Source of the DNA: Octopus sinensis
Taxonomy: Eukaryota
Direction: 5' to 3'
Assembly (NCBI RefSeq): GCF_006345805.1
Contig: NW_021832385.1
Span: 1 to 64,000, forward strand
Length of the DNA stretch: 64,000 nucleotides
Translations under genes and position numbers: made by a program
Shown: in pieces, positions 1 to 53,129 of the stretch
Layout of the letters: every line of letters starts with the position of its first letter
How positions within the stretch are numbered: the stretch's first letter is position 1
Notes under the pieces: model-generated
Databases searched by the model: none
The model's input: only the letters and a program-made list of their open reading frames with translations
Told to the model about the DNA's origin: nothing

Positions 1-141
1 CATGCATACACGTATACACACATGTATATATACACACACGACCACACATACATATACGCACAGAAAAATATATATACACATACACACACACATACTCACA
101 TACACCATACACACACATATCCACACACACATGCACACATG
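1..141. repeat. (CA)/(TA)-rich compound microsatellite
   Basis: Degenerate CA/TA dinucleotide run. Confidence 0.9.
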
Positions 142-1295
142 TGTGGTACGGGTAATAAATGAGGTTTTTAAGTCGAGGGTGACATCAAGGAAGTTAGCTT
201 AGTTAAGTTGGATTCTAAGGTAATCCTAAGCCCTAGTTTTTAAAGAAGGTGTAAAGATTTTCCGGAACCCATCCGTGGTCCTGGGGTTTATTTTGTGGAG
301 GGCGAAAAGGCCGTCATCGCGGTAAAGACTACCGGAGAGGCCTGTGAATAGGGTTTTCAGCCTATGGAGGATGAAAAGGCCCACTAGGTCACTTATTTCA
401 GCAGAGTCGTTAGCACCCATGCTGACGTCGAAGGGGTCACAGATTTTTTGTTGATCCAGTGGGATCCGTCATAGAAAAGAAAAGTCTTACGTGCGTGGAG
501 GATCACATCTTGCTCGGCCTCGGTGGAAGACCTCCTGGCGAAGTTAATCGCGTCGATCAGCAAGCTCTCCGATATGGAGGCGTAGTAATCCTCGATATCC
601 AGTTGTAGGAATCGGGTGTTGCTTTTATCAGGTAAATCCCGGAACCAGGTTATTGCCTCGGAGGTCCTATTCCAGAGTGGAAGGGGTGAAGCTTCACGCA
701 TTTTTGGTAAAATCCTGTCCAGGATCTTCTTGCTGACGGATCCGATGTCAGACTTGGTTGGGTTAATCAAACGGACCGACGGTTTATTTTCGAAATGGTC
801 TTTGTGGTCTTTCAGGGTGAAGTGTGGGGACTTCACCCTCAGGGGTTCGGTTCGGTCATCGATTTTAAGGGAGGTGGAAATCTCTTTCCCGGCTAAATTG
901 GTTTCAGTTAGCGCTGCGTCGTCTACTTTCTTGTACTTAGCTGTGATGGCGTTATCGGCTAGTCTGTTGTAGGTATCCGGAGTCACCGCGTAAATATTTT
1001 TTGTCTTGTCCGAAGGGACATGGAGGTTCTGGGAGCTTTTCATTTTCGAAAGCTTCTCATTCAGTTCCGTTTGGAAAGGTAGGTTGACTCTCCTGAATTT
1101 GATGTTTTTTATCATGAGGAAGAGGTCTTCTTCAAACGGTTCAAGTAGGCTGTTGGTAGGAGGGGCCTTATTTGATTTGAAGCCGTACTTATCATTACTG
1201 GTAGATGCTACATCAGGATGGTCGAAGAAGAACGATCTCCATCGAATTCTTTTGATGAACTCATCAGTCCGTCTAATGAGGGCTTTTTGGTACTT
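142..1295 (-). mobile_element. Penelope-like element RT, truncated inverted copy of 4330-5480
   Basis: ORF 393..1355 has PLE RT motifs (SDKTKNIY, TLKDHKDHF, RLINPTKSDIG, QLDIEDYY). ORF 226..420 has MGANDSAEISDLVG and LYRDD. The stretch is the reverse complement of 4330-5480. Confidence 0.92.
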
Positions 1296-1448: not shown

Positions 1449-1484
<36 letters not shown>

Positions 1485-1669
1485 ATATAAAAGGGCTTAG
1501 TAAAATAAATACTTGCCGCATACTGAACTCATTAGAAATAGCAGCTAAAAAACTTTTTTAAAGCTATTTCTAATACTTAAAGAAAATCTCTCTCATATAT
1601 AGTGTTGCTTAATTCAACTCACAAAAGTTTGGGGGTAAGGACATCGAAAAATCAAATGCTAAGGTTATT

Positions 1670-1720
1670 TGAGAACGTACGTTCAAGATTAGTCAAAAAC
1701 AACACTTCATCATCAGCTCA
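1670..1720 (-). ncRNA. Type I hammerhead ribozyme, family A (one A missing from GAAA)
   Basis: Minus strand reads tgag-CTGATGA-stem II-GAA-CGTACG-TT-ctca. Confidence 0.65.
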
Positions 1721-2217
1721 GAAATTCCTTGGTTTGGATTTGGAAACACTGAAAATAAGAACATACCCTTTCGAGATCTGCTCGTAACTAACAGTGTCAA
1801 CAAATTCAAATAAGCAAGCGAAGAATCTCTGTTCTCGCCTTTCCACCAGCGTGGGTTAAAATCATCAAACACTATGCTTATTTCGGTAAAATCCGAAGCA
1901 TTAATCAGAGGAGAGATTAATTATAATTTCAACAATTGAGGGCAAAATTATTAATTATTAATCAATGTAATATTTCACCAGTGTTTCAAGTATGCAAAGG
2001 GACCATTCAAGGCGAATTCAAATTATTACATTATATAAAAGGGCTTAGTAAAATAAATTACTTTGCCGCATACTGAACTCATTAGAAATAGCAGCTAAAA
2101 AACTTTTTTAAAGCTATTTCTAATACTTAAAGAAAATCTCTCTCATATATAGTTTGCTTAATTCACTCACAAAAGTTTGGGGGTAAGGACATCGAAAAAT
2201 CAAATGCTAAGGTTATT

Positions 2218-2270
2218 TGAGAACGTACGTTTCAAGATTAGTCAAAAACAACACTTCTATCATCAGCTCA
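2218..2270 (-). ncRNA. Type I hammerhead ribozyme, family A
   Basis: Minus strand reads tgag-CTGATGA-26 nt-GAAA-CGTACG-TT-ctca. Stem I is tgag/ctca and stem III is the palindrome ACGTACGT. Confidence 0.82.
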
Positions 2271-2762
2271 GAAATTCCTTGGTTTGGATTTGGAAACACT
2301 GAAAATAAGAACATACCCTTTCGAAGATCTGCTCGTAACTAACAGTGTCAACAAATTCAAATAAGCAAGCGAAGAATCTCTGTTCTCCCCTTTCCACCAG
2401 CGTGGGTTAAAATCATCAAACACTATGCTTATTTCGGTAAAATCCGAAGCATTAATCAGAGGGAGATTAATTATAATTTCAACAATTGAGGGCAAAATTA
2501 ATTAATTATTAATCAATTTCACCAAGTGTTCAGTATGCAAAGGGACCATTCAAGGCGAATTCAAATTATTACATTATATAAAAGGGCTTAGTAAAATAAA
2601 TTACTTTGCCGCATACTGAACTCATTAGAAATAGCAGCTAAAAAACTTTTTTAAAGCTATTTCTAATACTTAAAGAAAATCTCTCTCATATATAGTGTTT
2701 GCTTAATTCAACTCACAAAAGTTTGGGGGTAAGGACATCGAAAAATCAAATGCTAAGGTTAT

Positions 2763-2815
2763 TGAGAACGTACGTTTCAAGATTAGTCAAAAACAACACT
2801 TCTATCATCAGCTCA
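2763..2815 (-). ncRNA. Type I hammerhead ribozyme, family A
   Basis: Same motif as 2218-2270. Confidence 0.82.
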
Positions 2816-3356
2816 GAAATTCCTTGGTTTGGATTTGGAAACACTGAAAATAAGAACATACCCTTCGAAGATCTGCTCGTAACTAACAGTGTCAACAAAT
2901 TCAAATAAGCAAGCGAAGAATCTCTGTTCTCCCCTTTCCACCAGCGTGGGTTAAAATCATCAAACACTATGCTTATTTCGGTAAAATCCGAAGCATTAAT
3001 CAGAGGGAGATTAATTATAATTTCAACAATTGAGGGCAAAATTAATTAATTATTAATCAATTTCACCAAGTGTTCAGTATGCATAATTAATGTATTAATT
3101 AATTAATTAATTAATGTATTAATTAATTAATTTTGCCCTCAATTGTTGAAATTATAATTAATCTCCCTCTGATTAATGCTTCGGATTTTACCGAAATAAG
3201 CATAGTGTTTGATGATTTTAACCCACGCTGGTGGAAAGGGGAGGAGAGACAGATTCTTCGCTTGCTTATTTGAATTTGTGACACTGTTAGTTACGAGCAG
3301 ATCTTCGAAAGGGTATGTTCTTATTCAGTGTTTCCAAATCCAAACCAAGGAATTTC

Positions 3357-3407
3357 TGAGCTGATGATGAAGTGTTTGTTTTGACTAATCTTGAAACGTA
3401 CGTCTCA
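3357..3407 (+). ncRNA. Type I hammerhead ribozyme, family A (1-nt deletion at the cleavage site)
   Basis: tgag-CTGATGA-...-GAAA-CGTACG-T-ctca. Confidence 0.65.
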
Positions 3408-3901
3408 AATAACCTTAGCATTTGATTTTCGATGTTCCTTACCCCCAAACTTTTGTGAGTTGAATTAAGCAAACACTTATATGAGAGAGATTTTCTTTAA
3501 GTATTAGAAATAGCTTTAAAAAAGTTTTTTTTTTAGCTGCTATTTCTAATGAGTTCAGTATGCGGCAAAGTAATTTATTTTACTAAGCCCTTTTTATAAT
3601 GTAATAATTTGAATTCGCCTTGAATGGTCCCTTTGCATACTGAACACTTGGTGTGAATTGATTAATAATTAATTAATTTTGCCCTCAATTGTTGAATTAT
3701 AATTATCTCCCTCTGATTAATGCTTCGGATTTTACCGAAATAAGCATAGTGTTTGATGATTTTAACCCACGCTGGTGGAAAGGGGAGAACAGAGATTCTT
3801 CGCTTGCTTATTTGAATTTGTTGACACTGTTAGTTACGAGCAGATCTTCGAAAGGGTATGTTCTTATTTTCAGTGTTTCCAAATCCAAACCAAGGAATTT
3901 C

Positions 3902-3954
3902 TGAGCTGATGATAGAAGTGTTGTTTTTGACTAATCTTGAAACGTACGTTCTCA
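3902..3954 (+). ncRNA. Type I hammerhead ribozyme, family A
   Basis: tgag CTGATGA tagaagtgttgtttttgactaatctt GAAA CGTACG TT ctca. Confidence 0.82.
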
Positions 3955-4136
3955 AATAACCTTAGCATTTGATTTTTCGATGTCCTTACCCCCAAACTTT
4001 TGTGAGTTGAATTAAGCAAACACTATATATGAGAGAGATTTTCTTTAAGTATTAGAAATAGCTTTAAAAAAGTTTTTTAGCTGCTATTTCTAATGAGTTC
4101 AGTATGCGGCAAAGTAATTATTTTACTAAGCCCTTT

Positions 4137-4181
<45 letters not shown>

Positions 4182-4329
4182 TCAATATATACACATATAT
4201 ATAATATATATATATACACACACATACGCATACACACACATATACATATATATACACTACACGCACATACACATGTACATGCGTACCCATACACACACAC
4301 ACACACGCGCGCGCGCATCCATATATACA

Positions 4330-6370
4330 CATAAGTACCAAAAAGCCCTCATTAGACGGACTGATGAGTTCATCAAAAGAATTCGATGGAGATCGTTCTT
4401 CTTCGACCATCCTGATGTAGCATCTACCAGTAATGATAAGTACGGCTTCAAATCAAATAAGGCCCCTCCTACCAACAGCCTACTTGAACCGTTTGAAGAA
4501 GACCTCTTCCTCATGAAAAAAACATCAATTCAGGAGAGTCAACCTACCTTTCCAAACGGAACTGAATGAGAAGCTTTCGAAAATGAAAAGCTCCCAGAAC
4601 CTCCATGTCCCTTCGGACAAGACAAAAAATATTTACGCGGTGACTCCGGATACCTACAACAGACTAGCCGATAACGCCATCACAGCTAAGTACAAGAAAG
4701 TAGACGACGCAGCGCTAACTGAAACCAATTTAGCCGGGAAAGAGATTTCCACCTCCCTTAAAATCGATGACCGAACCGAACCCCTGAGGGTGAAGTCCCC
4801 ACACTTCACCCTGAAAGACCACAAAGACCATTTCGAAAATAAACCGTCGGTCCGTTTGATTAACCCAACCAAGTCTGACATCGGATCCGTCAGCAAGAAG
4901 ATCCTGGACAGGATTTTACCAAAAATGCGTGAAGCTTCACCCCTTCCACTCTGGAATAGGACCTCCGAGGCAATAACCTGGTTCGGGATTTACCTGATAA
5001 AAGCAACACCCGATTCCTACAACTGGATATCGAGGATTACTACGCCTCCATATCGGAGAGCTTGCTGATCGACGCGATTAACTTCGCCAGGAGGTCTTCA
5101 CCGAGGCCGAGCAAGATGTGATCCTCCACGCACGTAAGACTTTTCTTTTCTATGACGGATCCCACTGGATCAACAAAAAATCTGTGACCCCTTCGACGTC
5201 AGCATGGGTGCTAACGACTCTGCTGAAATAAGTGACTAGTGGGCCTTTTCATCCTCCATAGGCTGAAAACCTATTCACAGGCCTCTCCGGTAGTCTTTAC
5301 CGCGATGACGGCCTTTTCGCCCTCCACAAATAAACCCCAGGACCACGGATGGGTTCCGGAAAAATCTTTACACCTTCTTAAAAACTTAGGCCTTAGGATT
5401 ACCTTAGAATCCAACTTAACTAAAGCTAACTTCCTTGATGTCACCCTCGACTTAAAAACCTCACTTATTACCCGTACCACAAACCGAATGAATCCCTTAA
5501 ATATATAGATATTAATCCAACCACCCCCAAAATATATTAGATAACCTAGTAAAAAGTGTCTCAATTAGAATTTCTAGCCTGTCCGCCACGGAAGATATCT
5601 TTAAGGCCGCAGCCCCCTATTACAACGAGGCCCTGGCCCGCAGGCTTCAAAGATAAGATTACCTATACTAGTATAGCCCCACGCCAACCCAGGAAAAATA
5701 GACGAAGACACATTAGCTGGTACAACCGTGAGGTCGCTACACTGTAGAAAAATCTTCTTCACTCTCCTACAGAAACACTTCCCCACCCAACATAAGTACT
5801 ACACTATCCTAAATAAGAACACTATTAGACTCTCCTACTCTACCACGCCCAATCTAGCCAGGAACCTAGCCAACAACAATGTGAAAAACTTAACATATCT
5901 ACTTTTTCCGAGCCCCATCCAACGTCCGATAGCAATTGCAACTGCCCTGATAAAACCACCTGCCCCCTCAACAACAACTGCCTACAGAGGGACCTAGTAT
6001 ATACATGCGAGGTAAGATCAGGCCCTGACGATAAAAGAAAATCCTACATCGAATGACGTCAAACAGCTTTAAGACCCGTTGGTACGCACACACACACTCG
6101 TTCCGGCGACAGGAAAATCCAACCAAACTACCCTCGCCGGCACATCTGGTACCTTAAAAGGAACTCCATCCCCTTCAAGACCAAGTGGAAACTACTACAG
6201 AAGGCGCGCTCGTACACAGGAGGCCATACTGCTGTGACCTCTGCATATCGGAGAGCCTAGAGATCTTGTTCGCCAAAGGCCCTCTCTTAACAAAATCTCA
6301 GAACACTCCCAAATTGTATGCATAAGAAGTATGCGAACTACAAGAACTATAGACCTACCCGGCAACCAGA
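4330..6370 (+). mobile_element. Penelope-like element ORF (RT + C-terminal GIY-YIG endonuclease), frameshifted; possibly Hydra-type clade
   Basis: RT motifs lie across ORFs 4273, 4583 and 5239 (NFLDVTLDL). From ~5933 the DNA reads NCNCPDKTTCPLNNNCLQRDLVYTCEV...SYI.MTSNSFKTRWYAH (Cys linker + GIY-YIG). The N-terminus abuts a CA/TA microsatellite. The clade call is inference. Confidence 0.9.
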
Positions 6371-6444
6371 TTGATGACACCCCCCCCAAATCCCACCGTT
6401 CCCCTAGCACCCCCGATTACCTTTTCTCCTAAGACCTTTCACAT

Positions 6445-7224
<780 letters not shown>

Positions 7225-7239
7225 TTATTATATAGAAGG

Positions 7240-7289
7240 AGCTTCTACAGGACTAGAACTGTTTCATTCAAGAGAATCTTCAGGAAGCT
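7240..7289 (-). ncRNA. Type I hammerhead ribozyme, family D
   Basis: Minus strand reads agcttc-CTGAAGA-ttctcttgaat-GAAA-cagttctagtcctg-TA-gaagct. Confidence 0.82.
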
Positions 7290-7575
7290 AGTTAACAAGA
7301 ATTGTATTGGCATTTATACATTTAGGCAGGTTTAACGGGGTGTTGGTGGGGGACTTTTTTGGGGTAGGCATAGCGCAAAATATCATACTTGGGGGAGTGG
7401 TCAAGGAGTCAGTGTTAAATTAGATAGACGTCAAACTAATATCTAATTTAACACTGACTCCTTGACCACTCCCCCAAGTATGATATTTTGCGCTATGCCT
7501 ACCCCCAAAAAGTCCCCCACAACACCCCGTTAAACCTGCCTAAATGTATAAATGCCAATACAATTCTTGTTAACT

Positions 7576-7626
7576 AGCTTCCTGAAGATTTCTCTTGAAT
7601 GAAACAGTTCTAGTCCTGTAGAAGCT
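7576..7626 (+). ncRNA. Type I hammerhead ribozyme, family D
   Basis: agcttc CTGAAGA tttctcttgaat GAAA cag-ttctagtc-ctg TA gaagct. Stem I is 6 bp, stem III is 4 bp, and the cleavage triplet is GUA. Confidence 0.88.
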
Positions 7627-8093
7627 CCTTCTATATAATAAATTAATTTTACTCTGCTATGTATTGAGTACCTTATTTACTGTGCTTAACCCCGAATCAA
7701 CCCGGGACCTACATATATATATATATATGCATATATGTATGTGTGTGTATATGTGTATTATGTATGTGTATGTTTATATATATGTATGTATATGTATATG
7801 TATGTGTGTGTGTATATGTATATATGTGTATATATATGAGTGTACGCGAGTATGTCGATGTATATGTAGGTATGTAGAGTTATGTATGTGCAGGTATGTG
7901 AGTGTAGATACAAATTGTAGATGTGTATATATATGTATGTGTATATATACATGTATATAGGTATATGTATGTGTGTGTATATATATATATATATATATGT
8001 ATATGCGAGTATGTAGAGATATAAGTATGTGCATGTGTATATGTATATGTGTGTATATATATGTATGGGTATGTGTATGTGTATGTATGTATG

Positions 8094-8128
<35 letters not shown>

Positions 8129-8285
8129 GTATGCATATACGTATGTATGTATGTATGTATGTATATGTGTATGTATATATGTGTGTAAGTGTGTGTATAT
8201 ATGTAAATGTAAGTGTGTGTGCTTGTATGAGAATGTATGTATGTTTGCACACATGTATATATGTGTGTGTATGTGTATATGTATA

Positions 8286-8332
<47 letters not shown>

Positions 8333-8608
8333 ATGTGTATGTATATATATATGTGTATGTGTGTGTGTATACATGTGTGTATGTGTATGTATGTATGTAT
8401 ATATATGCGTGTGTATGTGTATGTGTATATGTACATATACGCGTACGCTCGTGTGTTTATGTATATGTAGGTACGTAGAGTTATCTATGTGTGTATTTAT
8501 ATGTACATGTGTGTAAGTATGTATATATATGTATATATGTATGTGTATGTGTGTGTATATATATATGTATGTATATGTGTATGTGTATGTGATGTGTATG
8601 TGTAATAG

Positions 8609-8654
<46 letters not shown>

Positions 8655-8896
8655 ATATATATATGTGTGTAAGTTTAACGTATGTATCCGTCTATATATA
8701 GGTAACTGCACGTACATATATTAATATTTATTATTTATTTTTTGAGTATGCATGTAAGTATGAATATAAGGAGGCGCGTGTGTGGGTGTGTGTATGCGTA
8801 CGCATGTACATGTGTATGTGCGTGTAGTGTATATATATGTATATGTGGGTGTATGCGTATGTGTGTATAATATGTATATATATGTGTATATATATG

Positions 8897-8942
<46 letters not shown>

Positions 8943-9346
8943 ATGTATGTAGGTGTATATGTATGTGTGTGTATTTATATTTATTGGTGTATATATATAG
9001 ACTAGCCTTCTAAGAGTGTAGACATGAATTGTAGGTACGCGTACGTATGTGTATATACGTGAATGTATGTAGATGTATGTATGTATGAATATAACGCGTG
9101 CGTGCGTGTATGTGTATGAGTGTACGAATGAGTGAGTGTACGTGCTAAAGAGTGTGCGTGAGTGAATGAGTGCTTGTTTTCCAGAGAAGAGATAAATGGA
9201 CTGGCTGTCATAGCCAGATGTTTGTGACCAAGCGGCCAAGATATAACAAAAGTAATAAACGAAGATAATAAAATTAAAATTAGGGAATGGGTCTGTATTT
9301 GTATGTGTATATATATGTGTGTATGTGTAGGTATGCATAGGTACAC

Positions 9347-9386
<40 letters not shown>

Positions 9387-9995
9387 ATATGTATGTATGT
9401 GTGTGTATATGTGTGTGTAGTGTATATATGTGTATATAGGGACTAGTGTGCTGTGTGTGCATGTGTGTGTGTGGATATGTGGTGTGTATGCGTGTATGTG
9501 AGTATGTGTGTGTAGTGTATATATATTTTTCTGTGCGTATATGTATGTGTGGTCGTGTGTGTATATATACATGTGTGTATACGTGTATGCATGTGAGTGT
9601 GTGTATGTATACATATATGTGTATGTGTAGATATGTATATGTATGTGTATGTGTAAGTGTATATTATGTATATATATGTGGTGTATGTATGTGTGTATGA
9701 TATGTATATATGTTTGTATGTGTGTGTATGTATGTATACATGTGTGCATAGGTATAAGTGAGAATCTCCTTATTTACCTAAAACTCTATTCCCCTTTTTT
9801 TTTTTATATATATAGATTTTTTAATTTTTTAATTTTTTAATTTTTTTATTTATTCTTCTATCTAATTTAACACTGACTCCTTGACCACTCCCCCAAGTAT
9901 GATATTTTGCGCTATGCCTACCCCCAAAAAGTCCCCCACCAACACCCCTTTAAACCTGCCTAAATGTATAAATGCCAATACAATTCTTGTTAACT

Positions 9996-10046
9996 AGCTT
10001 CCTGAAGATTTCTCTTGAATGAAACAGTTCTAGTCCTGTAGAAGCT
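9996..10046 (+). ncRNA. Type I hammerhead ribozyme, family D
   Basis: Identical to 7576-7626. Confidence 0.88.
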
Positions 10047-10146
10047 CCTTCTATATAATAAATATATATATATATAAATAAATAAATATATATATATATA
10101 CATATATATGATATATATATATATATATCATATATATATATATATG

Positions 10147-11466: not shown

Positions 11467-11509
<43 letters not shown>

Positions 11510-11804
11510 ATAGTTATCCGTAATAATGAAGGGTGAAATTAATTAATTTGAAAAATTATCAATTACACCAAGTAGTCTTCGGCATGTAAAAGCCTCATTC
11601 GAGGAAAATTTAAGTAATACTAAGCAATAAGGGTTTAGCAACGAGTTGCCTTACCACATACCGAATTTAGAAATAGCAGTCAAAGGTTATAGCTATTTCT
11701 TCCACTAAAAAGGGAGATCTCAGTAAAAACAGCATTTGGAAGGCAGACACAACAGGTAAGAGAGAATGAATTGACTGCAATCTATCATACATTTTTTTAG
11801 TTAT

Positions 11805-11909
11805 CCACGGACGTACGTTTCGAAATCAAGTTTTAAGGAAAGCATAAGAATTAAATATTAAATATTAAATAATTCTATCTTACCGAAACTTCTTTTCTCT
11901 TCAGCGTAG
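11805..11909 (-). ncRNA. Type I hammerhead ribozyme, family B
   Basis: Reverse complement of 12998-13102. Confidence 0.85.
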
Positions 11910-12400
11910 AATATATAATCATAAATGATTATATATTGAATTTTGAGATACCAGAAGGCACCAACTCAACTCAGTATCAGAGCGAGCTAGAATCCGCAAC
12001 TGGTATCACCGAATTCAATTTGTGAATGAAACGATTGTGTCAACAGCCCCTTCCACCCGCGTGTAGCCAAAACAAGATGCTGTGGTCATCTACTGAGATA
12101 AAATATGGTTATCCGTAATAATGAAGGGTGAAATTAATTAATTTGGAAAAATTATCAATTACACCAAGTAGTCTTCGCATGTAAAAGCCTCATTCGAGGA
12201 AAATTAAGTAATACTAAGCAATAAGGGTTTAGCAACGAGTTGCCTTACCACATACCGAATTTAGAAATAGCAGTCAAAGGGTTATAGCTATTTCTTCCAC
12301 TAAAAAGGGAGATCTCAGTAAAAACAGCATTTGGAAGGCAGACAAAAACAGGTAAGAGAGAATGAATTGACTGCAATCTATCATACATTTTTTTAGTTAT

Positions 12401-12504
12401 CCACGGACGTACGTTTCGAAATCAAGTTTTAAGGAAGCATAAGAATTAAATATTAAATATTAAATAATTCTATCTTACCGAAACTTCTTTTCTCTTCAGC
12501 GTAG
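12401..12504 (-). ncRNA. Type I hammerhead ribozyme, family B
   Basis: Reverse complement of 12998-13102. Confidence 0.85.
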
Positions 12505-12997
12505 AATACTATAATCATAAATGATTATATATTGAATTTTGAGATACCAGAAGGCACCAACTCAACTCAGTATCAGAGCGAGCTAGAATCCGCAACTGGT
12601 ATCACCGAATTCAATTTGTGAATGAAACGATTGTGTCAACAGCCCCTTCCCACCCGCGTGTAAGGCAACTCGTTGCTAAACCCTTATTGCTTAGTATTAC
12701 TTAAATTTTCCTCGAATGAGGCTTTTACATGCCGAAGACTACTTGGTGTAATTGATAATTTTTCCAAATTAATTAATTTCACCCTTCATTATTACGGATA
12801 ACCATATTTTATCTCAGTAGATGACCACAGCATCTTGTTTTGGCTACACGCGGTGGGAAGGGGCTGTTGACACAATCGTTTCATTCACAAATTGATTCGG
12901 TGATACCAGTTGCGGATTCTAGCTCGCTCTGATACTGAGTTGAGTTGGTGCCTTCTGGTATCTCAAAATTCAATAATATATTTTAGATTATAGTATT

Positions 12998-13102
12998 CTA
13001 CGCTGAAGAGAAAAGAAGTTTCGGTAAGATAGAATTATTTAATATTTAATATTTAATTCTTATGCTTTCCTTAAAACTTGATTTCGAAACGTACGTCCGT
13101 GG
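12998..13102 (+). ncRNA. Type I hammerhead ribozyme, family B (76-nt stem II)
   Basis: ctacg CTGAAGA gaaa..aagttt...gaatta...taattc...aaactt..tttc GAAA CGTACG TC cgtgg. The cleavage triplet is GUC. Confidence 0.87.
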
Positions 13103-13590
13103 ATAACTAAAAATGTATATAGATTGCAGTCAATTCATTCTCTTTACCTGTTTGTGTCTGCCTTCCAAATGCTTTTTTTACTGAGATCTCCCTTTTTAGT
13201 GGAAGAAATAGCTATAACCCTTTGACTGCTATTTCTAAATTCGGTATGTGGTAAGGCAACTCGTTGCTAAACCTTATTGCTTAGTATTACTTAAATTTTC
13301 CTCGAATGAGGCTTTTACATGCCGAAGACTACTTGGTGTAATTGATAATTTTTCCAAATTATTAATTTCACCCTTCATTATTACGGATAACCATATTTTA
13401 TCTCAGTAGATGACCACAGCATCTTGTTTTGGCTACACGCGGGTGGGAAGGGGCTGTGACACAATCGTTTCATTCACAAATTGAATTCGGTGATACCAGT
13501 TGCGGATTCTAGCTCGCTCTGATACTGAGTTGAGTTGGTGCCTTCTGGTATCTCAAAATTCAATATATAATCATTTATGATTATAGTATT

Positions 13591-13694
13591 CTACGCTGAA
13601 GAGAAAAGAAGTTTCGGTAAGATAGAATTATTTAATATTTAATATTTAATTCTTATGCTTCCTTAAAACTTGATTTCGAAACGTACGTCCGTGT
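13591..13694 (+). ncRNA. Type I hammerhead ribozyme, family B
   Basis: Same motif; the 3' strand of stem I reads cgtg. Confidence 0.82.
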
Positions 13695-14180
13695 GATAAC
13701 TAAAAATGTATGATAGATTGCAGTCAATTCATTCTCTTACCTGTTTGTGTCTGCCTTCCAAATGCTGTTTTTACTGAGATCTCCCTTTTTAGTGGAAGAA
13801 ATAGCTATAACCCTTTGACTGCTATTTCTAAATTCGGTATGTGGTAAGGCACTCGTTGCTAAACCCTATTGCTTAGTATTACTTAAATTTTCCTCGAATG
13901 AGGCTTTTACATGCCGAAGACTACTTGGTGTAATTGATAATTTTTCCAAAATAATTAATTTCACCCTTCATTATTACGGATAACCATATTTTATCTCAGT
14001 AGATGACCACAGCATCTTGTTGGCTACACGCGGGTGGGAAGGGGCTGTTGACACAATCGTTTCATTCACAAATTGAATTCGGTGATACCAGTTGCGGATT
14101 CTAGCTCGCTCTGATACTGAGTTGAGTTGGTGCCTTCTGGTATCTCAAAATTCAATATATAATCATTTATGATTTAGTTT

Positions 14181-14282
14181 CTACGAAGAGAAAAGAAGTT
14201 TCGGTAAGATAGAATTATTTAATATTTAATATTTATTCTTATGCTTTCCTTAAAACTTGATTTCGAAACCGTACGTCCGTGG
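14181..14282 (+). ncRNA. Degenerate hammerhead, family B (CTG of the core deleted)
   Basis: ctacgaagag instead of ctacgctgaagag, and an extra C after GAAA. Confidence 0.5.
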
Positions 14283-14949
14283 ATAACTAAAAAAATGTAT
14301 GATAGATTGCAGTCAATTCATTCTCTCTTACCTGTGTTGTCTGCCTTCCAAATGCTGTTTTTACTGAGATCTCCCTTTTTAGTGGAAGAAGAATAGCTAT
14401 AACCCTTTGACTGCTATTCTAAATTCGGTATGTGGTAGGCAACTCGTTGCTAAACCCTTATTGCTTAGTATATATATATTATATATATATGTATTATATA
14501 TATATATGATATTTATATATATGATATATCTATATTATGATATATATATATATCCGGTTCCGTTTTTCAACAGAGGGAGACGTATTGCCTCTTCTCTGTG
14601 AAAAAGTTTGCATAGATCGGCGAAATAACCCCTGTAGTTGCAAAACGTAAAACTCTAAGTCATAGAGATCACTACAACACTTTGGTTTTAAAAATATTTT
14701 AAATATATATATATAAATATATACATATACACAGTAATTTTCATTTTCGCCGAAACGCACATGGTGCAAAAATAACTGAATCAAGTTATCTCCTGCAAGA
14801 AAGAAAAAAGAAGCATCTCTCTGAAAAAAATCCCGTAACCAAAAAAAAATCCAGACCACATTGTTGATTAAGTATCACTTTCATCTATTTCATATTTTAT
14901 TTATTATTCTATTTTATCCTTCACTTAGGCCCACATCTTAGTTAAAGTT

Positions 14950-16650
14950 GCGATCGTCATTTTGTTTGTTTACATTTTCAATATCTGTTCTCGATATATA
15001 ATTTTTCAGATACTCTATCTTCTAATTAGCCTTAGATTAAATTAAATAACGTTAATATTACCCACACTCTAATTAATTTTTGTTTGTTTACATTTTCAAT
15101 ATCTGTTCTCGATATAATAATTTCTCAGATACTCTATCTCTAATTAGCCTTAAGATTAAATTAAATAACGTTTAATTATTGATAACGTCTAATTAGCCTT
15201 AAGATTAAATTAAATAACGTTAATATTGTTTTATATTGTTAATAATTATTGTAATTAGCCTTAAGATTAATTAATAACGTTTAATATTGTTTTAATTGTT
15301 AATAATTTTTCAGATACTCTATCTTCTAATTAGCCTTAAGATTAAATTAAATAACGCTTAATACTACCCACACTCTAATATAATTTTTGTTGTTTACATT
15401 TTCATATCTGTTCTCGATATAATAATTTTTCAGATACTCTATCTTCTAATTAGCCTTAAGATTAAATAAATAACGTTTAATATGATACCGTCAAATTAGC
15501 CTTAGGATTAAATTAATAACGTTTAATATTGTTTAATATTGTTAATAATTATGTTAATTAGCCTTAAGATTAAATTAAATAAAGTTTAATATTGTTTTAA
15601 TATTGTTAATAATTTTTCAGATACTCTATCTTCTAATTAGCCTTACGATTAAATTAAATAACGTTTAATATTACCCAACCCTTAATATAATTTGTTTGTT
15701 TACATTTTCAATATCTGTCTCGATATAATTTTTCAGAAGATACCCTATCTTCTAATAGCCTTAAGATTAAATAAATAACGTTTAATATTAATAACGTCTA
15801 ATTAGCCTTAGGATTAAATTAAATAACGTTTATATTGTTTTAATATTGTTAATAATTATTGTTAATTAGCCTTAGGATTAAATTAAATAACGTTTAATAT
15901 TGTTTAATATTGTTAATAATTATTGTTAATTAGCCTTAAGATTAAATTAAATAACGTTTAATATTGTTTTAATATTGTTAATAATTCTTCAGATATTCTA
16001 TCTTCTAATTAGCCTTAAGATTAAATTAAATAACGTTTAATATTACCCACACTCTAATATAATATTAACATTGCTAATATATTTTCAGATACTCTATCTC
16101 CTAATTAGCCTTAAGATTAAATAACGTTTTTACCCACACTCTAATATAATATTAATATTGCTAATATATTTTCAGATACTCTATCTTCTAATTAGCCTTA
16201 AGATTAAATTAAATAACGTTTAATATTACCCACACTCTAATATAATATTAACATTGCTAATATATTTTCAGATACTCTATCTCCTAATTAGCCTTAAGAT
16301 TAAATAACGTTTTTACCCACACTCTAATATAATTTAATATTGCTAATATTTTCAGATACTCCATCTCCCTTAGCCTTAAGATTAAATAACGTTTTTTTTT
16401 ACCCACACTCTAATATAATATTAATATTGCTAATATATTTTCAGATACTCTATCTCCTAATTAGCCTTAAGATTAAACAACGTTTTTACCCACACTCTAA
16501 TATAATATTAATATTGCTAATACATTTTCAGATACTCTATCCCCTAATTAGCCTTAAGATTAAATAACGTTTTTACGTTTTTTACCCACAAATTTAATAT
16601 TGTTAATATTTCTTTTTCAAGTACTCTATCTTCTAATTAGCCTTAATATC
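14950..16650. repeat. AT-rich complex minisatellite directly upstream of LINE ORF1
   Basis: Repeated core CAGATACTCTATCTTCTAATTAGCCTTAAGATTAAATTAAATAACGTTTAATATT with variable linkers. Confidence 0.92.
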
Positions 16651-24336: not shown

Positions 24337-24689
24337 ATCGTTGCATAGACGTTTTTATGTGTATGTATAGATATATATATATATTGGTGTGTGAGTTAGT
24401 GTATGTATTTAGATATGGTTATATATATTTAGTTATATGTGTATGAGCATGTGTGTATATATAGTTTATTTATTTATTTTTTTATTTAAAAAATTTTTTT
24501 TTTGTACATCTTTAAATATGAGAACTTTAATAATAAGTTTCTTTATATTCAATTGTTTATAGGGTTTATTTTAGATTATATATTGATTATATATAGATTA
24601 TATATAGATTATATATATTTATATTTTTCATTGATAATTTTATTATTTTAAACTTATATTTTAATATATTGATATTTTAGATCGAAAAT

Positions 24690-24732
24690 CCACCTGACGA
24701 ATGTCATTGAAGACATGAAACGATTGTAGTGG
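24690..24732 (+). ncRNA. Type I hammerhead ribozyme, family F
   Basis: ccac CTGACGA atgtc-attgaa-gacat GAAA CGATTG TA gtgg; stems I and II are perfectly paired. Confidence 0.9.
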
Positions 24733-24966
24733 CGGTTTATTTCTTTATATTAAAAATTTTTATGTATTGATTAAGTCTTTCCTTGTTTGTTTTGCAAAGT
24801 AGTGGTTTTGTCTCGAATTAATATTATATAATATTTTACTATAAAATTGGATTTAATCCTAAATATGATTTTTCCCTGTAAATTTGGATTTATTCCCTAA
24901 TATTTATTATTATTTAATATATTGATAATTTTGTATATTGAGTGTAATACCTCAATTTCGTAAATT

Positions 24967-26532
24967 ATGGAATTTACAGGTAAGATAGAACCGCTATTTT
25001 GGGATTCATCTTTGAAAGATATTCCTATACCTTCTAGAAAGGAATTTATTTTGAAATTTATTAATAATGTTAAAGGTTTTATTTCTAGAATTAAATGGAA
25101 AGCTTATTACTATGATTTTTATTTATTTAATGATAATGATAGTAGGAATGATAATTTTACCTCTAAATTTAAATCTAGAAAGGAGCCTCCACTTAATAAA
25201 GATTTACAATTACTAGAAGATAATATATGGAAGGTAGTAAAAAATATTGAATTCTATAAATACCCAAATAGAAATAATGAATATTTGAGAAACTTAGCAA
25301 TTAAAATTAAAGATATGAGAAATATGGATGGTATTATAGTACAATCTGATAAAACTAGGAATCTATATAAATTAGATGTTAAATTATATGATAAACTCTT
25401 AGGGAAAGAAATAATTAAAAAATATAAAATTGTTCCAGATTATATACTTTATAATATTAATAAGGCCTCTAAATTAGTAATGTTAAAATATGAATTGGAT
25501 AATAAAACTGAACCTTATGTACCTTTGCACCTTAGAATTACTCTTAAAGACCATAAAGATAATTTTTATTCAGACCCTAAAGTTAGATTAATTTGCCCAT
25601 GTAAATCTGACCTAGGTAAATTAAGTAAATTTATTTTAGATAAATATATCAATAAATTAAATAAACTTAATTATTTAAAATTATGGTTTAGTAATAACAA
25701 TACATTGAAATGGTTTAATAATATTAAAGATAAAAATCGTTATAAATTTATTCAAATAGATATAGATAATTATTATTCTTCTATTAATGAAATTGTGTTT
25801 AATAAAGCACTTATTTTCGCAATGAATAAAGTGGGAATGTCAATTGAAGAAGTTAATGTAATTAAAATGGCTAGGAAATCGCTCATTAAATATAAAAATA
25901 AATTATGGTCTAGGAATGATACTAGAGATTGTTTTGATATACCGATGGGAGCACCAGATTCTGCACAAGCTACTGATTTAGTAGGTATTTTTCTTTTATC
26001 TGAACTCCAATTAGAAAATCTTAAGATAGAGGGTGGCTTATATAGAGATGATCTTCTACTAATTACAAAGAATTGTACTAATAGGAATCTAGAAGTATAT
26101 AAGAAGAAACTATATAGTTTCTTTAAAAGATATGGTTTAAGTATTACTATATATAAGGAGAATTATAATGTTAATTATTTAGATGTTAATTTTAATCTAA
26201 TTACAGGTAAAACACAACCATATCATAAAATTAATGTGAACCTTAGATATATAAATGTTAATAGTAATCACCCACATTCTATAAAAAAATCGTTGATTAA
26301 TAATATAAGTAAACGTATTTCATTACTCTCTTATGATATAGAGATTTTTAATAAACATGCTACTTATTATAATGAGGCCCTTAGAGGGGCAGGTTATAAT
26401 AGGAATATTAAATTTTATAATATTAAGGATACAGATTTAACTAATAATTTTCAAGATAATTATAATAATATATATAATCGTTGCATAGACGTTTTTATGT
26501 GTATGTATAGAGATATATATATTGGTGTGTGA
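24967..26532 (+). CDS. Penelope-like reverse transcriptase, 521 aa, uninterrupted but lacking the GIY-YIG domain
   Basis: SLKDIPIPS, SDKTRNLY, TLKDHKDNF, QIDIDNYYS, FDIPMGAPDSAQATDLVG, GGLYRDD, NYLDVNF, SNHPHSIKK. Confidence 0.92.
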   Translation: MEFTGKIEPLFWDSSLKDIPIPSRKEFILKFINNVKGFISRIKWKAYYYDFYLFNDNDSRNDNFTSKFKSRKEPPLNKDLQLLEDNIWKVVKNIEFYKYPNRNNEYLRNLAIKIKDMRNMDGIIVQSDKTRNLYKLDVKLYDKLLGKEIIKKYKIVPDYILYNINKASKLVMLKYELDNKTEPYVPLHLRITLKDHKDNFYSDPKVRLICPCKSDLGKLSKFILDKYINKLNKLNYLKLWFSNNNTLKWFNNIKDKNRYKFIQIDIDNYYSSINEIVFNKALIFAMNKVGMSIEEVNVIKMARKSLIKYKNKLWSRNDTRDCFDIPMGAPDSAQATDLVGIFLLSELQLENLKIEGGLYRDDLLLITKNCTNRNLEVYKKKLYSFFKRYGLSITIYKENYNVNYLDVNFNLITGKTQPYHKINVNLRYINVNSNHPHSIKKSLINNISKRISLLSYDIEIFNKHATYYNEALRGAGYNRNIKFYNIKDTDLTNNFQDNYNNIYNRCIDVFMCMYRDIYIGV

Positions 26533-26825
26533 GTTAGTGTATGTATTTAGATATGGTTATATATATTTAGTTATATGTGTATGAGCATGTGTGTATATAT
26601 AGTTTATTTTTATTTTTATTTTTTTTTTTTGTACATCTTTAAATATGAGAATTTTAATAATAGGTTTCTTTATATTCAATTGTTTATAGGGTTTATTTTA
26701 GATTATATATTGATTATATATAGATTATATATAGATTATATATAGATTATATATATTTATATTTTTCATTGATAATTTTATATTTTAACTTATATTTTAA
26801 TATATTGATATTTTAGATCGAAAAT

Positions 26826-26869
26826 CCACCTGACGAATGTCATTGAAGACATGAAACGATTGTGTGTGG
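26826..26869 (+). ncRNA. Hammerhead, family F, 3' copy with altered cleavage site
   Basis: Core and stem II match 24690, but ...cgattgtgtgtgg replaces ...cgattgtagtgg. Confidence 0.7.
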
Positions 26870-26975
26870 CGGTTTATTTCTTTATATTAAAAATTTTTAT
26901 GTATTGATTAAGTCTTTCCTTTCCTGTTTGTTTTGCAAAGTAGTGGTTTTGTCTCGAATTAATATTATATATATG

Positions 26976-31624: not shown

Positions 31625-31718
<94 letters not shown>

Positions 31719-31883
31719 AGATGGCTAGCAGCAGGCTGTTTCGCCTCATACCGAAGGAATTAGAAACGGCAGTCAAAGACCGTTTTTTCCATTTTCTATA
31801 AGTGAGATTCCAAAAACGAAGCCCTTACGGCTCACATACACAAAACCGGAGTGGCAAATATACGAAAGCAATCACTTACCGTT

Positions 31884-31950
31884 ATAGCGAACACGTGTTT
31901 CTGGATCACAAACATAGAAAAAGTAGTTTGAATTCCGTCATCAGCGCTAT
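31884..31950 (-). ncRNA. Type I hammerhead ribozyme, family C
   Basis: Minus strand reads atagcg CTGATGA cgga..caaac...gtttg..tcca GAAA CACGTG TT cgctat; stem I is 6 bp. Confidence 0.85.
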
Positions 31951-32433
31951 ATTCGATAGCTTTACCAAATGCCACCAGCCCTCACTTCTGACCCAGCGAC
32001 ATCAGATAGTGGGGGGAAGTGCGCAGATGTTAAAACTAAGTAACGACTGGGAACGTAAATTTTCCCTCCAAAATCCTGCCATGCGCGCCTTCTGGGTAAT
32101 CGTAATGGAATGAGGATCCCACATGGTAATGCAATAAAATGGTAAATAATTTTCCTGTGGTTTTTCATGTAACCAACAATTATTTACCGGTAAATTTCGG
32201 TATGTAAATACGACAAATTAATTGTCAGGACCTTTGTAAGGTTCAGTAAATAGTAAAGAAAATAAGATGGCTAGCAGCAGGCTATTTCGCCTCATACCGA
32301 AGGAATTAGAAATGGCAGTCAAAGACCGTTTTTTTCCATTTTCTATAAGTGGAGATTCCAAAAACGAAGGCCCTTACGGCTCACATACACAAAACCGGAG
32401 TGGCAAATATACGAAAGCAATCACTTACCGTTA

Positions 32434-32500
32434 ATAGCGAACACGTGTTTCTGGATCACAAACATAGAAAAAGTAGTTTGAATTCCGTCATCAGCGCTAT
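32434..32500 (-). ncRNA. Type I hammerhead ribozyme, family C
   Basis: Identical to 31884-31950. Confidence 0.85.
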
Positions 32501-32983
32501 ATTCGATAGCTTTACCAAATGCCACCAGCCCTCACTTCTGACCCAGCGACATCAGATAGTGGGGGGAAGTGCGCAGATGTTAAAACTAAGTAACGACTGG
32601 GAACGTAAATTTTCCCTCCAAAATCCTGCCATGCGCGCCTTCTGGGTAATCGTAATGGAATGAGGAATCCACATGGTAATGCAATAAACATGGTAAATAA
32701 TTTTCCTGTGGTTTTTCATGTAACCAACAATTATTTACCGATAAATTTCGGTATGTAAATACGACAAATTAATTGTCAGGACCTTTGTAAGGTTCAGTAT
32801 ATAGTAAAGAAAATAAGATGGCTAGCAGCAGGCTATTTCGCCTCATACCGAAGGAATTAGAAATGGCAGTCAAAGACCGTTTTTTCCATTTTCTATAAGT
32901 GGAGATTCCAAAAACGAAGACCCTTACGGCTCACATACACAAAACCGGAGTGGCAAATATACGAAAGCAATCACTTACCGTTA

Positions 32984-33049
32984 ATAGCGAACATTATTTC
33001 TGGATCACTAACATAGAAAAAGTAGTTTGAATTCCGTCATCAGCGCTAT
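32984..33049 (-). ncRNA. Hammerhead, family C, stem III palindrome destroyed
   Basis: Plus strand has gaacattatttc in place of gaacacgtgtttc. Confidence 0.55.
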
Positions 33050-33697
33050 ATTCGATAGCTTTACCAAATGCCACCAGCCCTCACTTCTGACCCAGCGACA
33101 TCAGATAGTGGGGGGAAGTGCGCAGATGTTAAAACTAAGTAACGACTGGGAACGTAAATTTTCCCTCCAAAATCCTGCCATGCGCGCCTTCTGGGTAATC
33201 GTAATGGAATGAGGAATCCACATGGTAATGCAATAAAAATGGTAAATAATTTTCCTGTGGTTTTTCATGTAACCAACAATTATTTACCGGTAAATTTCGG
33301 TATGTAAATACGACAAATTAATTGTCAGGACCTTTGTAAGGTTCAGTAAATAGTAAAGAAAATAAGATGGCTAGCAGCAGGCTATTTCGCCTCATACCGA
33401 AGGAATTAGAAATGGCAGTCAATGACCGTTTTTTCCATTTTCTATAAGTGGAGATTCCAAAAACGAAGGCCCTTACGGCTCACATACACAAAACCGGAGT
33501 GGCAAATATACGAAAGCAATCACTTACCGTTAATAGCGAACACGTGTTATATACGTATATACATATATATAATATATATATATATTATATATATATACAT
33601 ATATATACGTATATACATATATATATATATATTATGATATATATGATATATATATATATATATTATATAATATATATATATATATATTATATATATA

Positions 33698-35779: not shown

Positions 35780-35854
<75 letters not shown>

Positions 35855-35900
35855 ATATATATACTATATATGATATATATATATATATATATTTATATAT

Positions 35901-36263
35901 TGTGAAATAGAAAGATGAATAATCTTGTTGCAGATTAATCAAAAGTTTAACCGATACCTTGGTAGCAAAAATCACAGCAGAAGACAGCACGGTTGGAGGT
36001 ACAACCATATGGTGTTGCAACCGTGCGTTGGTGCGGATAATTGAATTTTAATATTATTATTGAATTGAAGAAATTGAGTTGACGAAGATTGAACAGAAAT
36101 CGTTTTATTTCATTCTACACGTGTTTCGAAAGGCACAATTTACCAAATCCGATTGAATAATGAGACCATATTGTGTCTTTCTCTTCAGGAAGAAATAGGA
36201 AATCCGTTGGAAAAAACAAAAACAGAACAGAGCGGAGCAAAAACCAAATCGAACTAGCCTAGT

Positions 36264-39849: not shown

Positions 39850-40700
39850 ATTCCAAGACTGAACACTATCCCCCCCCCAGTTGTAATTGTAGGATTAGAT
39901 CAAATTGTCCGGTATCTGGTCGTTGTTCGGTCCAAAATGTAATTTATAAATGCACGATAACTTCTAACAATAGCTTTCTTTATTTCGGATGTTCAGTAGA
40001 TTTTAAAAAACGTCTCAACAATCATTTTTCCTCTTTGAGACTAAAACATAAGGCAGGTCGCACTACACTATCTAGCAAAATTTGGGAACTAAAAACAAAT
40101 AATATATGATTCAACCTAAAATGGGATATAGTTAGAAGGGCGAAACCTTATAGAAATAGTAGGGAAGGTTGTCAACTTTGTTCTATGGAAACTTATGAAA
40201 TTTTAAAGCATCGAAGTAATAAAATCTGTTGAATAATCGTCTGGAGTTGGGAGCATCTTGCATACATTCCACAACTCGAACGTTTAAATACTTTAAATAA
40301 AAATTTCAACTTTTATTATAATAATATTAAGAAATATACTATACTAGCCTTCAACTTAACTTTCATAGATGACTAGAATAACTTCACTGTAATCTTGAAA
40401 TTGGAACTCTTCCTAAATCTAATCTAGTTTAAAATTTAAAGCTGTAGTTTTGGTCAGTTAGCGACTGAACTTCACAACCTCATATGTTCTTAAAATTTAA
40501 ATCTACATCTTTATCTGTATATCTACCTTCTCTAAAATGTTACTACTTGATTTGAAAGCTTTTATATTATTGGAAAACCTATATAATTGGCTGAAGAGCA
40601 TTCAGCATCTTAAATCTGCTGTAATTCTTACAACTTTTAATAAAATGTTGTAGTACGAAACAATTGTACCAAATTACCGGAGTCATTCTTGTTGCTATTT
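39850..40700 (+). mobile_element. 5'-truncated Penelope-like element: GIY-YIG domain + 3' UTR
   Basis: From ~39880 the DNA reads CNCRIRSNCPVSGRCSVQNVIYKCTI...SYFGCS..FKKRLNNH...LSSKIWELK...W.I...KPY...CQLC..E. Confidence 0.85.
40587..40672 (+). ncRNA. Type I hammerhead ribozyme, family G (branched 59-nt stem II)
   Basis: ttgg CTGAAGA ...cagca/tgctg...tacaac/gttgta... GAAA CAATTG TA ccaa. Confidence 0.78.
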
Positions 40701-40928
40701 TTGATTATATATACGTATATCTATATATACATATATATGTATAGATATATACATATATATATGTATATATACATATATATATATGTAAATATATATACAT
40801 ATTTATATATATACATATATATATGTATATGTATACATATATTTATATATATATATATGTGTGTATATGTACACATATATTTATATATATACATAAACAA
40901 GAAAAAAGCAACAAGAATGGATTTGTTG

Positions 40929-41017
40929 TTCAGTACAATTGTTTCATACGAAGAACAGTTTTATTAAAAGCTGCAAATATTGCAGCAAATACAAGTGTCC
41001 CGTATTCATCAGCCAAA
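40929..41017 (-). ncRNA. Type I hammerhead ribozyme, diverged relative of family G
   Basis: Minus strand reads tttgg CTGATGA atacg...gctgca/tgcagc...cgtat GAAA CAATTG TA ctgaa. Confidence 0.78.
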
Positions 41018-47660: not shown

Positions 47661-47836
47661 TTATGTGTATGCATATTATTATGTATATACTTATATATAT
47701 GTATATTTAGGTGTATATACACTTATATGTATATGTAAATATGTACATATGCATATTTTTGTATATGTGTACCTTGTTTAATATTCATATTTGCATTTTA
47801 TATCTTCATTTTATATCTTTATAATTGTACTTTATA

Positions 47837-47962
47837 ATTTCTGACGAGGCCTTGAGATATATATATAAGTAACTCATTTTTAATTGCATATTACCTCAAT
47901 ACATCTGACTAATATGGGCATAATGAGATACTCTTATCTACAGGCTGAAATAGCTGTAAGAT
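47837..47962 (+). ncRNA. Type I hammerhead ribozyme, family H (99-nt stem II)
   Basis: attt CTGACGA ggcct...aggct GAAA TAGCTG TA agat. Confidence 0.78.
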
Positions 47963-48441
47963 CCATTTTATATGTATTATTCTTATGTTATTATCTTACT
48001 TATTGATGTATATTGTTATATTGTTTTATTCTGTCTTATTCTGCTGGATTTGTATGTTCCTATTTAATCTAAAAAATTAGTTAATAAATTATATGAATTG
48101 GTATTATCTGGAAATTGAGGACTGAAAGAAATCTATTCCTCCATTTTCTTACTTTGTATAATGAATTTGAGGTAAAACATTTTACCTTCCCCATATAATA
48201 CAATAAATCAATTAATTGCATTGCAATTCTTAGCATTTATGTATTAGCCTTCTGGGTACTTTACTGGCAGTATATTGGATAAATGATATCCCATAGTGGG
48301 TTACACTCATAACCCCTATCTCACTTTGTACTTTTAAGTTATTTTTCTGAGGAATTTGAATTGCTAATACTTATGTACATGAAGTATCTACTCAGATGGT
48401 ATAAGTGAATGCATCCAAGTATAGTACATCAATTCCACAGG

Positions 48442-52427: not shown

Positions 52428-52553
52428 ATCTCTGACGAGGCCTTGAGATATATATATAAGTAAATCATTTTTAACTGCATATTACCTCAATACATCTGAC
52501 TAATATGGGCATAATGAGATACTCTTATCTACAGGCTGAAATAGCTGTAAGAT
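52428..52553 (+). ncRNA. Type I hammerhead ribozyme, family H
   Basis: atct CTGACGA ggcct...aggct GAAA TAGCTG TA agat; stem I is a perfect 4 bp. Confidence 0.82.
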
Positions 52554-52763
52554 CCATTTTATATGTATTATTCTTATGGTATTATCTTACTTATTGATGT
52601 ATATTGTTATATTGTTTTATTCTGTCTTATTCTGTTGGATTTGTATGTTCCTATTTAATCTAAAAAATTAGTTAATAAATTATATAAATTGGTATTATCT
52701 GGAAGTTGAGGATTGAAAGAAATCTATTCCTCCATTTTCTTATTTTATATATACATATATATA

Positions 52764-53049: not shown

Positions 53050-53129
53050 TTCTACACGTGTTTCGAAAGGCACAAATTACCAAAATCCGATTGAATAATG
53101 GGACCATATTGTGTCTTTCTCTTCAGGAA
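53050..53129 (-). ncRNA. Type I hammerhead ribozyme, family E
   Basis: Reverse complement of 53152-53231. Confidence 0.85.

Follow-up and report, generated by a model that had tools for sequence, protein, structure and literature searches.

A hammerhead-bearing tandem array beside a Hydra-clade PLE in Octopus sinensis as a probable non-LTR retrozyme insertion

In Octopus sinensis (NCBI RefSeq assembly GCF_006345805.1, contig NW_021832385.1), the stretch of 64,000 nucleotides analysed here (the window) carries tandem units of about 545 nt, with one hammerhead ribozyme each, directly upstream of a reverse transcriptase (RT) ORF of a PLE, and the question raised by this locus is whether these units, called array A, are multimerised pseudo-LTRs (pLTRs) of that ORF or a retrozyme-like concatemer, the two readings offered in an earlier note. 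The explanation favoured here, at a probability of about 0.65, is that array A represents one insertion of a high-copy non-LTR retrozyme that descends from a Hydra-clade pLTR and was put head-to-head into a (TA)n tract by a PLE reverse transcriptase from one template. The coordinates of the features are collected in Table 1.

Table 1. Array A, the adjacent ORF and related features of the window
Feature	Position	Strand	Remarks
Flank b	1..141	.	reverse complement of 9450-9593 in the D unit
Mirror copy of the ORF's 5' part (1.15 kb)	142..1295	-	2 substitutions and 11 indel columns in 1162
Monomer L1	1481..2026	-	outermost left; 3' end meets (TA)n at site 1; hammerhead with a 1-nt loss in GAAA
Monomer L2	2027..2569	-	543 nt, GC 0.33, hammerhead intact
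Type I hammerhead in L2	2218..2270	-	predicted cut after 2222 (GUU^C)
Monomer L3	2570..3083	-	~30 nt short at 5' end; hammerhead intact (core 2811, predicted cut after 2767)
Head-to-head junction	3084..3108	.	asymmetric, TAAT-type repeats
Monomer R1	3109..3603	+	shortened at 5' end, noisiest of the five; 1-nt losses in its hammerhead (core 3361)
Monomer R2	3604..4146	+	hammerhead intact; ends 3' at site 1, followed by (TA)n
Type I hammerhead in R2	3902..3954	+	helix I UGAG/CUCA, U·U at helix II base, palindromic helix III ACGUACGU, predicted cut after 3950
Spacer a	4147..4335	.	inverted copy of 8765-8945, mirrored at 1300-1480
Hydra-clade PLE ORF (assigned by motifs and context)	4336..6374	+	RT and C-terminal endonuclease region; many 1-nt frameshifts in this assembly
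Fragment F	6730..6942	.	older, same family, in TG/TA repeat; 130 nt antisense ending at site 1 and monomer positions ~21-97 in sense ending at site 2
D unit	7225..10063	+	~205-bp hammerhead repeat (7440-7643 = 9859-10063; inverted copy 7225-7440) around a TG/TA-rich body with a and b
Array B	11505..14471	.	related family, 593-nt unit, head-to-head 1.9 + 3.1 copies in (TA)n, no ORF; hammerhead with 75-76-nt helix II region
Array C	31716..33548	-	more distant relative, 550-nt unit, 3.3 copies, (TA)n, no PLE ORF; carries hammerheads

The head-to-tail arrangement of the monomers is real, TRF finding a period of 544 with 2.9 copies at 1482-3083 and 1.9 further copies of ~545 nt following in inverted orientation at 3109-4146. 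What had been taken for one array at 1481..4141 does consist of tandem units, but the span is a head-to-head pair, that is, two arrays facing away from each other, and 142-2518 is mirrored by 3109-5481 with 96.8% identity. Both flanks of array A are (TA)n, and the monomers have the sense of the ORF in both arms, at a gap of ~190 bp (4147-4335), as the earlier note had stated. The cleanest copies are 0-2 substitutions and 5-7 indel columns apart, L1 and R1 being noisier. Neither coding frames of at least 150 aa nor Hydra protein matches were found inside array A; the monomer is a non-coding unit whose GC content of 0.33 lies below the 50% by which non-LTR retrozymes are recognised, and the neighbours L2 and L3, with predicted cuts 545 nt apart, both carry a complete type I hammerhead, where the tandem definition of such retrozymes asks for two or more units of this kind in succession.

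Each unit contains in DNA the motif CTGATGA-[26 nt]-GAAACGTACGT-T^CTCA with a helix I of 4 bp, which is read as UGAG-CUGAUGA-[26 nt]-GAAACGUACGU-U^CUCA in RNA of the ORF sense. A hammerhead was indeed seen in every monomer: the motif is exact in three of the five copies (cores at 2266 and 2811 on the minus and at 3906 on the plus strand), and in L1 and R1 it shows single-base losses of the same type as found throughout both arms. The build is that of a type I ribozyme: helix I has 4 bp, helix II a U·U at its base and then 3 bp, the triplet is GUU, and helix III is a palindrome of 8 nt. The core CUGANGA/GAAA/UH with helices I-III, canonical for type I, is present; a G10.1-C11.1 pair with a stable helix II was not found, U·U and then 3 bp standing at that place. 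The descriptor matched the dinucleotide-shuffled monomer in 0 of 5000 cases, and in 27 of 5000 without the palindrome requirement. A search of Rfam yielded no hammerhead match to array A at the gathering threshold or at E<=10, the matches obtained being hairpin or microsatellite artefacts, and the CTGATGA at the start of the ORF (4361) was rejected as a hammerhead, being coding and without a partner.

The helix III formed as a duplex between two copies amounts to -9.8 kcal/mol, and the constrained hammerhead fold, in which an outer extension of helix I is possible, to -5.1 kcal/mol versus -10.8 for the free fold of the region, thus 5.7 kcal/mol above it. Cleavage is plausible, with a ribozyme that looks weak and dimer-dependent; any cleavage would probably be weak and would need two ribozymes paired via helix III. 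Weak cleavage, as dimers, has been described for PLE hammerheads of such build (PMC4209133), and the same helix II U·U occurs in 14 of the 25 Hydra-clade families counted from File S2 of PMC8557442. One loose end comes from a public run, in which an A replaces the helix II U and would close the pair. The core-breaking variant U4>C reaches a depth of 75,142 of 468,009 in run X1, 13.8 of 21.3 in X14 and 2,027 of 420,094 in X7, with none in X17, and, since it is common in two runs, the monomer may be able to spread without cleavage. In the variant table the hammerhead stretch seems conserved, but this was discarded as evidence, other stretches being equally quiet among the rows listed. The circular fold of monomer A, 64% paired, has a z of -3.7 in sense and -3.6 in antisense (30 shuffles), and this near-equality means that the fold lends no support to a circle.

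The adjacent ORF matches 76 proteins (525-2000 aa, 32-42% identity), up to residue ~699 of relatives of ~705-728 aa, and carries the motifs RWR (for RWK), DKT and CNCPDKTTC (CxCX5C). By these motifs, its C-terminal endonuclease region, frameshifted in this assembly, and the (TA)n context, it can be assigned to the Hydra-clade PLEs, whose marks are an RWK-type motif, DKT and a CxCX5C linker (PMC8557442). Pfam returned 0 families for the left ORF and one sub-threshold match for the second PLE. The closest named proteins are two Octopus vulgaris models (89-91%), both partial, which supplied no intact N-terminus of a close relative. Residues 1-19 are lacking in the ORF: the matches start at residue 19-21 of five relatives, and the missing N-terminus with its conserved YSTKNIP-type motif is absent near the array and not encoded in the monomer, from which it follows that the ORF is 5'-truncated. 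The GC content of the ORF is 46%, versus 23% and 31% for the two other Hydra ORFs of the window, and its left copy is open for ~300 codons; by both features the ORF family is possibly young or recently acquired.

The spacer between array and ORF, described in the earlier note as TA/CA, proved to be no anonymous microsatellite: it is copied specifically from 8765-8945. Spacer and left flank match the body of the D unit with scores of 84 and 119 versus 35 and 42 for the next best. Reading the spacer as an intron was dropped, because no upstream exon matches the N-termini of relatives. The spacer appears to be an inverted 5' piece of the UTR of the ORF family, a layout known for PLEs, and the D unit seems to be the pLTR of that family, for which it is a better candidate than monomer A. 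The D unit is non-coding and has a 2.4-kb period; an inverted D stands at the 5' end, and the whole resembles a PLE derivative devoid of an ORF.

The monomer is thus probably not the pLTR of the adjacent ORF. A multimerised pseudo-LTR is not borne out by an ORF that is 5'-truncated, has no sense copy behind it and is preceded by a spacer from the D body. As the earlier note had observed, no intact same-sense copy follows the ORF. The sole remnants, at 6730-6942, are 129 bp in antisense (82%) and 75 bp in sense (91%); the first same-sense core behind the ORF, at 7582, belongs to the unrelated D repeat. Nor does the repeat lead into an intact ORF start, an inverted foreign spacer intervening. 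For comparison, the best 80 of 185 confirmed Hydra-like loci from metagenomes were used, all on short contigs, with hammerheads counted by a core scan, since a strict hammerhead scan missed most loci. Among these 80, a core lies within 300 nt of the ORF end in 38 of the 44 ORF ends with 300 nt of room, and of 15 ORF-to-ORF gaps 14 hold one core and one holds none, 14 of them measuring 250-353 nt; the Hydra elements thus have a single short hammerhead spacer per ORF, whereas several ORF-free tandem units are found here. No tandem array like A was detected by TRF in the same 80 loci, the sole long-period array lying inside an ORF, which is weak evidence because the contigs are short, and monomers A-D have no match there. 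The two other Hydra elements of the window possess ordinary paired pLTRs, with a core 298 and ~1200 nt after the ORF, and monomer A is similar neither to these pLTRs nor to D.

It is accordingly very unlikely that the monomer is the ORF's own terminal repeat, amplified upstream and moved with the ORF, for all that its hammerhead is of Hydra type, that Hydra pLTRs in the window can stand 298 to 1200 nt behind an ORF, and that both arms agree in the sense and the 190-bp distance and in an in-frame ATG of the spacer, 20 codons before the truncated ORF, which could stand in for the missing 19-20 codons. The arms are near-identical (2 substitutions and 11 indel columns in 1162), so that their agreement is one observation and one event; and the lacking sense copy within the window, the lost ORF start with its YSTKNIP-type motif, and the single cores of the Hydra relatives all speak against such an origin. 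A further version, in which the retrozyme array was recruited as a new leader by the 5'-truncated Hydra ORF, the spacer ATG replacing ~20 codons and both arms being RT-copied from one read-through RNA of array, spacer and ORF, is highly improbable; if true, it would mean a PLE gaining a new pLTR from a retrozyme, the opposite of the published direction. Most likely, array A landed next to the ORF by insertion and is not its own end repeat. The (TA)n tract hit would lie in the inverted UTR piece at the 5' break of the truncated Hydra ORF, so that the adjacency of array and ORF would reflect a shared target. Monomer A itself probably descends from some Hydra-clade pLTR.

The monomer is not restricted to this locus, being present whole or in part in 20 of the 24 runs listed (10 studies, 6 organisms), one of which may be the source of the window itself, and having ORF-free relatives within the window. 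Four runs from 4 studies were examined; in two large ones, 5923 and 2687 contig pieces map to the monomer, mostly at 90-99% identity, depth in these runs being no copy number. The head-to-tail joint occurs in three of the four, with several linker spellings among the rows listed. All five copies in array A have A at 3824 and G at 3794, at which the other letter dominates in all four runs (depth of G at 3824: 241,098 of 299,685; 402,078 of 403,006; 25.9 of 25.9; 101.9 of 101.9); these shared letters, a minority or absent in the runs, indicate one template for the five. The thousands of divergent contig pieces, together with fragment F and arrays B and C, three window features that do not stand upstream of an ORF, agree with the many ORF-independent copies expected of non-LTR retrozymes, and with the tandem, ORF-free relatives and the single template of the five units they uphold the retrozyme-like branch of the earlier note. 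No RNA runs are among the listed holders of the monomer; two runs guessed to be RNA cover it, one with a contig across the head-to-tail joint, but the contigs show neither ends nor strand, and these runs are taken neither for nor against expression. A 24-nt motif had 0 matches in viral contigs.

The similarity of monomer A to B has a z of 7.5, and that to C, at 3.4, is weak; in the three-way alignment only ~200 nt around the tandem joint align, and the hammerheads do not line up. Two fixed 3' ends recur among these relatives. Both A arms, the left part of F, the right part of B, and C terminate at site 1, which lies ~190 nt downstream of the predicted cut; site 2, lying 100 nt past site 1 (106 in B), ends the right part of F and the left part of B at aligned positions, and two contigs of X14 run into (TA)n at about site 2. 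The 5' ends of the A arms are at unit positions ~31 and ~60-75, far from the predicted cut at 348, a start near the predicted cut being found only in array C, 10 nt upstream. This 5' edge of array C coincides with its palindromic helix III, and the palindrome is lost in one of its three hammerheads. Array B has a GUC triplet and a circular fold z of -5.0 versus -2.7 in antisense, and makes a cleaner retrozyme test case than array A. Fragment F looks like the product of twin priming, a concept from L1 work, on one RNA, and no literature linking twin priming to Penelope was found. Since F has one arm on either side of the tandem joint, an RNA template spanning the joint would be needed.

These observations bear on another origin, in which slippage or unequal crossing-over amplified a pLTR-derived monomer with a vestigial hammerhead like a satellite, neither a unit RNA nor a circle taking part. 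The weak-looking ribozyme and the common core-breaking variant are consistent with it, local duplication also gives near-identical neighbours, and such a route to the tandem state has been proposed by Li et al. 2026 (10.64898/2026.07.22.740005), whose available text gives cleavage for only 1 of 9 tested elements. Against it stand the (TA)n setting and the fixed 3' ends shared by fragment F and three distinct arrays, two of these head-to-head, as well as the many diverged spellings in which the joint occurs and the RNA template spanning the joint that the arms of F call for; it is therefore held unlikely. Under the favoured reading of one retrozyme insertion, the Hydra RT/endonuclease would probably move the retrozyme RNA in trans: the enzyme would nick both strands of the (TA)n tract, cDNA synthesis would begin twice within the RNA, at fixed points lying ~190-290 nt beyond the cut site, and the two cDNAs, each copied through 2-3 units, would join head-to-head. 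Copying through 2-3 units on each side would imply either a circle or an uncleaved multimer as the template, the odds between them being about even. The non-integer copy number, which in the earlier note was said to fit rolling-circle reverse transcription, is not specific, agreeing with both templates, because 5'-truncated copying of an uncleaved multimer gives the same. The favoured reading is weakened by the use of site 1 in both arms of A, where B and F show one of each site, by the 5' ends of these arms far from the predicted cut, by a hammerhead that lacks G10.1-C11.1, has no Rfam match and does not form the lowest-energy fold of its region, and by the frequent U4>C variant.

The use of site 1 also bears on the mirrored ORF arm. 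On the left, this arm ends within the RT region and passes into segment b with no clear homology at the join, and the left spacer with the ORF mirror would be either a foldback duplication at the 2-kb palindrome, a known mechanism and somewhat the more probable of the two, or a long-read misassembly. The latter, a foldback of reads at the array palindrome, would concern the mirror only and is compatible with one retrozyme insertion; its likelihood falls not far short of even. The differences between the arms are error-like, with 2 substitutions and 11 indel columns of single bases, both arm ends stand at site 1, unlike the mixed ends of B and F, and the break of the left arm into segment b points the same way. 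However, the centre is asymmetric, with 2.9 versus 1.9 units and a 25-nt junction, the monomer and the joint are found in independent runs, and tail-out inversions recur in the window, where one inverted hammerhead pair is only 74% identical and so natural.

By its sequence, array A falls within the definition of a non-LTR retrozyme, a kind of element already known. The metazoan non-LTR retrozymes (Cervera and de la Peña 2020, PMC7229834; Li et al. 2026), like A, are described as non-coding tandem units of GC below 50% with one type I hammerhead each, present in many copies and co-occurring with PLEs; in array A, the U·U at the base of helix II and the helix III of dimer type recall HHR_Amex2 and HHR_Amex1 of the axolotl, and a pLTR origin for such retrozymes has already been proposed (Li et al. 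2026). However, the unit of 545 nt exceeds the 170-400 nt reported for the invertebrates studied, which tells against the favoured reading, the range in Li et al. 2026 being 51-972, and the array A family departs from the metazoan retrozymes as described in the available texts, whose sampled hosts include no octopus, by insertions that lie head-to-head in (TA)n and whose 3' ends fall at two fixed sites. The Hydra-clade PLEs (Craig et al. 2021, PMC8557442), which include Hydra-1_Obim, share with this locus the RWR/DKT/CxCX5C ORF, the (TA)n targets and the inverted 5' pieces, and the hammerhead of array A has the U·U common in the clade as well as a GUU triplet; the hammerhead listed there for Hydra-1_Obim, a Hydra family of O. 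bimaculoides, differs in sequence from that of array A.

The Poseidon element PAc of Anolis (Frangieh et al. 2024, PMC11167929) works in the way proposed for array A: its RT begins at internal points of the RNA, the tail spans the stretch between two such starts, both strands are extended, the targets are AT-rich, and hammerhead cleavage is not needed for insertion, the RT preferring uncleaved RNA. PAc, however, is autonomous and belongs to another clade; its tail measures 30-40 bp and its RT starts lie within the ORF, whereas array A has an apparent tail of ~100 nt and a non-coding unit. No report of an octopus retrozyme family was found, although the supplements of PMC7229834, PMC4209133 and Li et al. 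2026 may list one; a giant squid paper gives a count of 235 hammerheads. The mobilisation of animal retrozymes by PLEs has been proposed and, in the available texts, not demonstrated, and the array A family, beside a young-looking Hydra ORF family, bears the footprints that it predicts: a Hydra-type ribozyme, (TA)n targets, two fixed 3' ends reminiscent of the PLE tail and head-to-head insertions of several units. Thus, a concrete pair of RNA and enzyme is offered for a test in vitro, and retrozymes would be extended to octopus.

The window contains further elements with hammerheads. A Hydra-like PLE at 24337-26971 has direct pLTRs of ~495 bp with a hammerhead in each, its 522-aa open frame ending short of any endonuclease domain, and the third Hydra-like PLE, at 47769-52751, has direct repeats of 392 bp, a TG/TA-rich 3' region of ~1.1 kb and a degenerate-looking hammerhead core. 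At 56572-58618 there is a 2-kb palindrome with a 443-bp internal repeat, itself palindromic, and with a hammerhead of 85-nt helix II region in the right arm (core 58274); short inverted pairs with long-helix-II hammerheads are found at 52983-53298, 35803-36208 and 40570-41036, the last being inward-pointing and 74% identical. An AT-rich nested tandem repeat at 14960-16649, with periods of about 62, 87, 183 and 307, showed no hammerhead by scan, and the minus strand of 43119-44188 encodes a transposase split over two frames, which, by its motifs, we take to be of mariner type.
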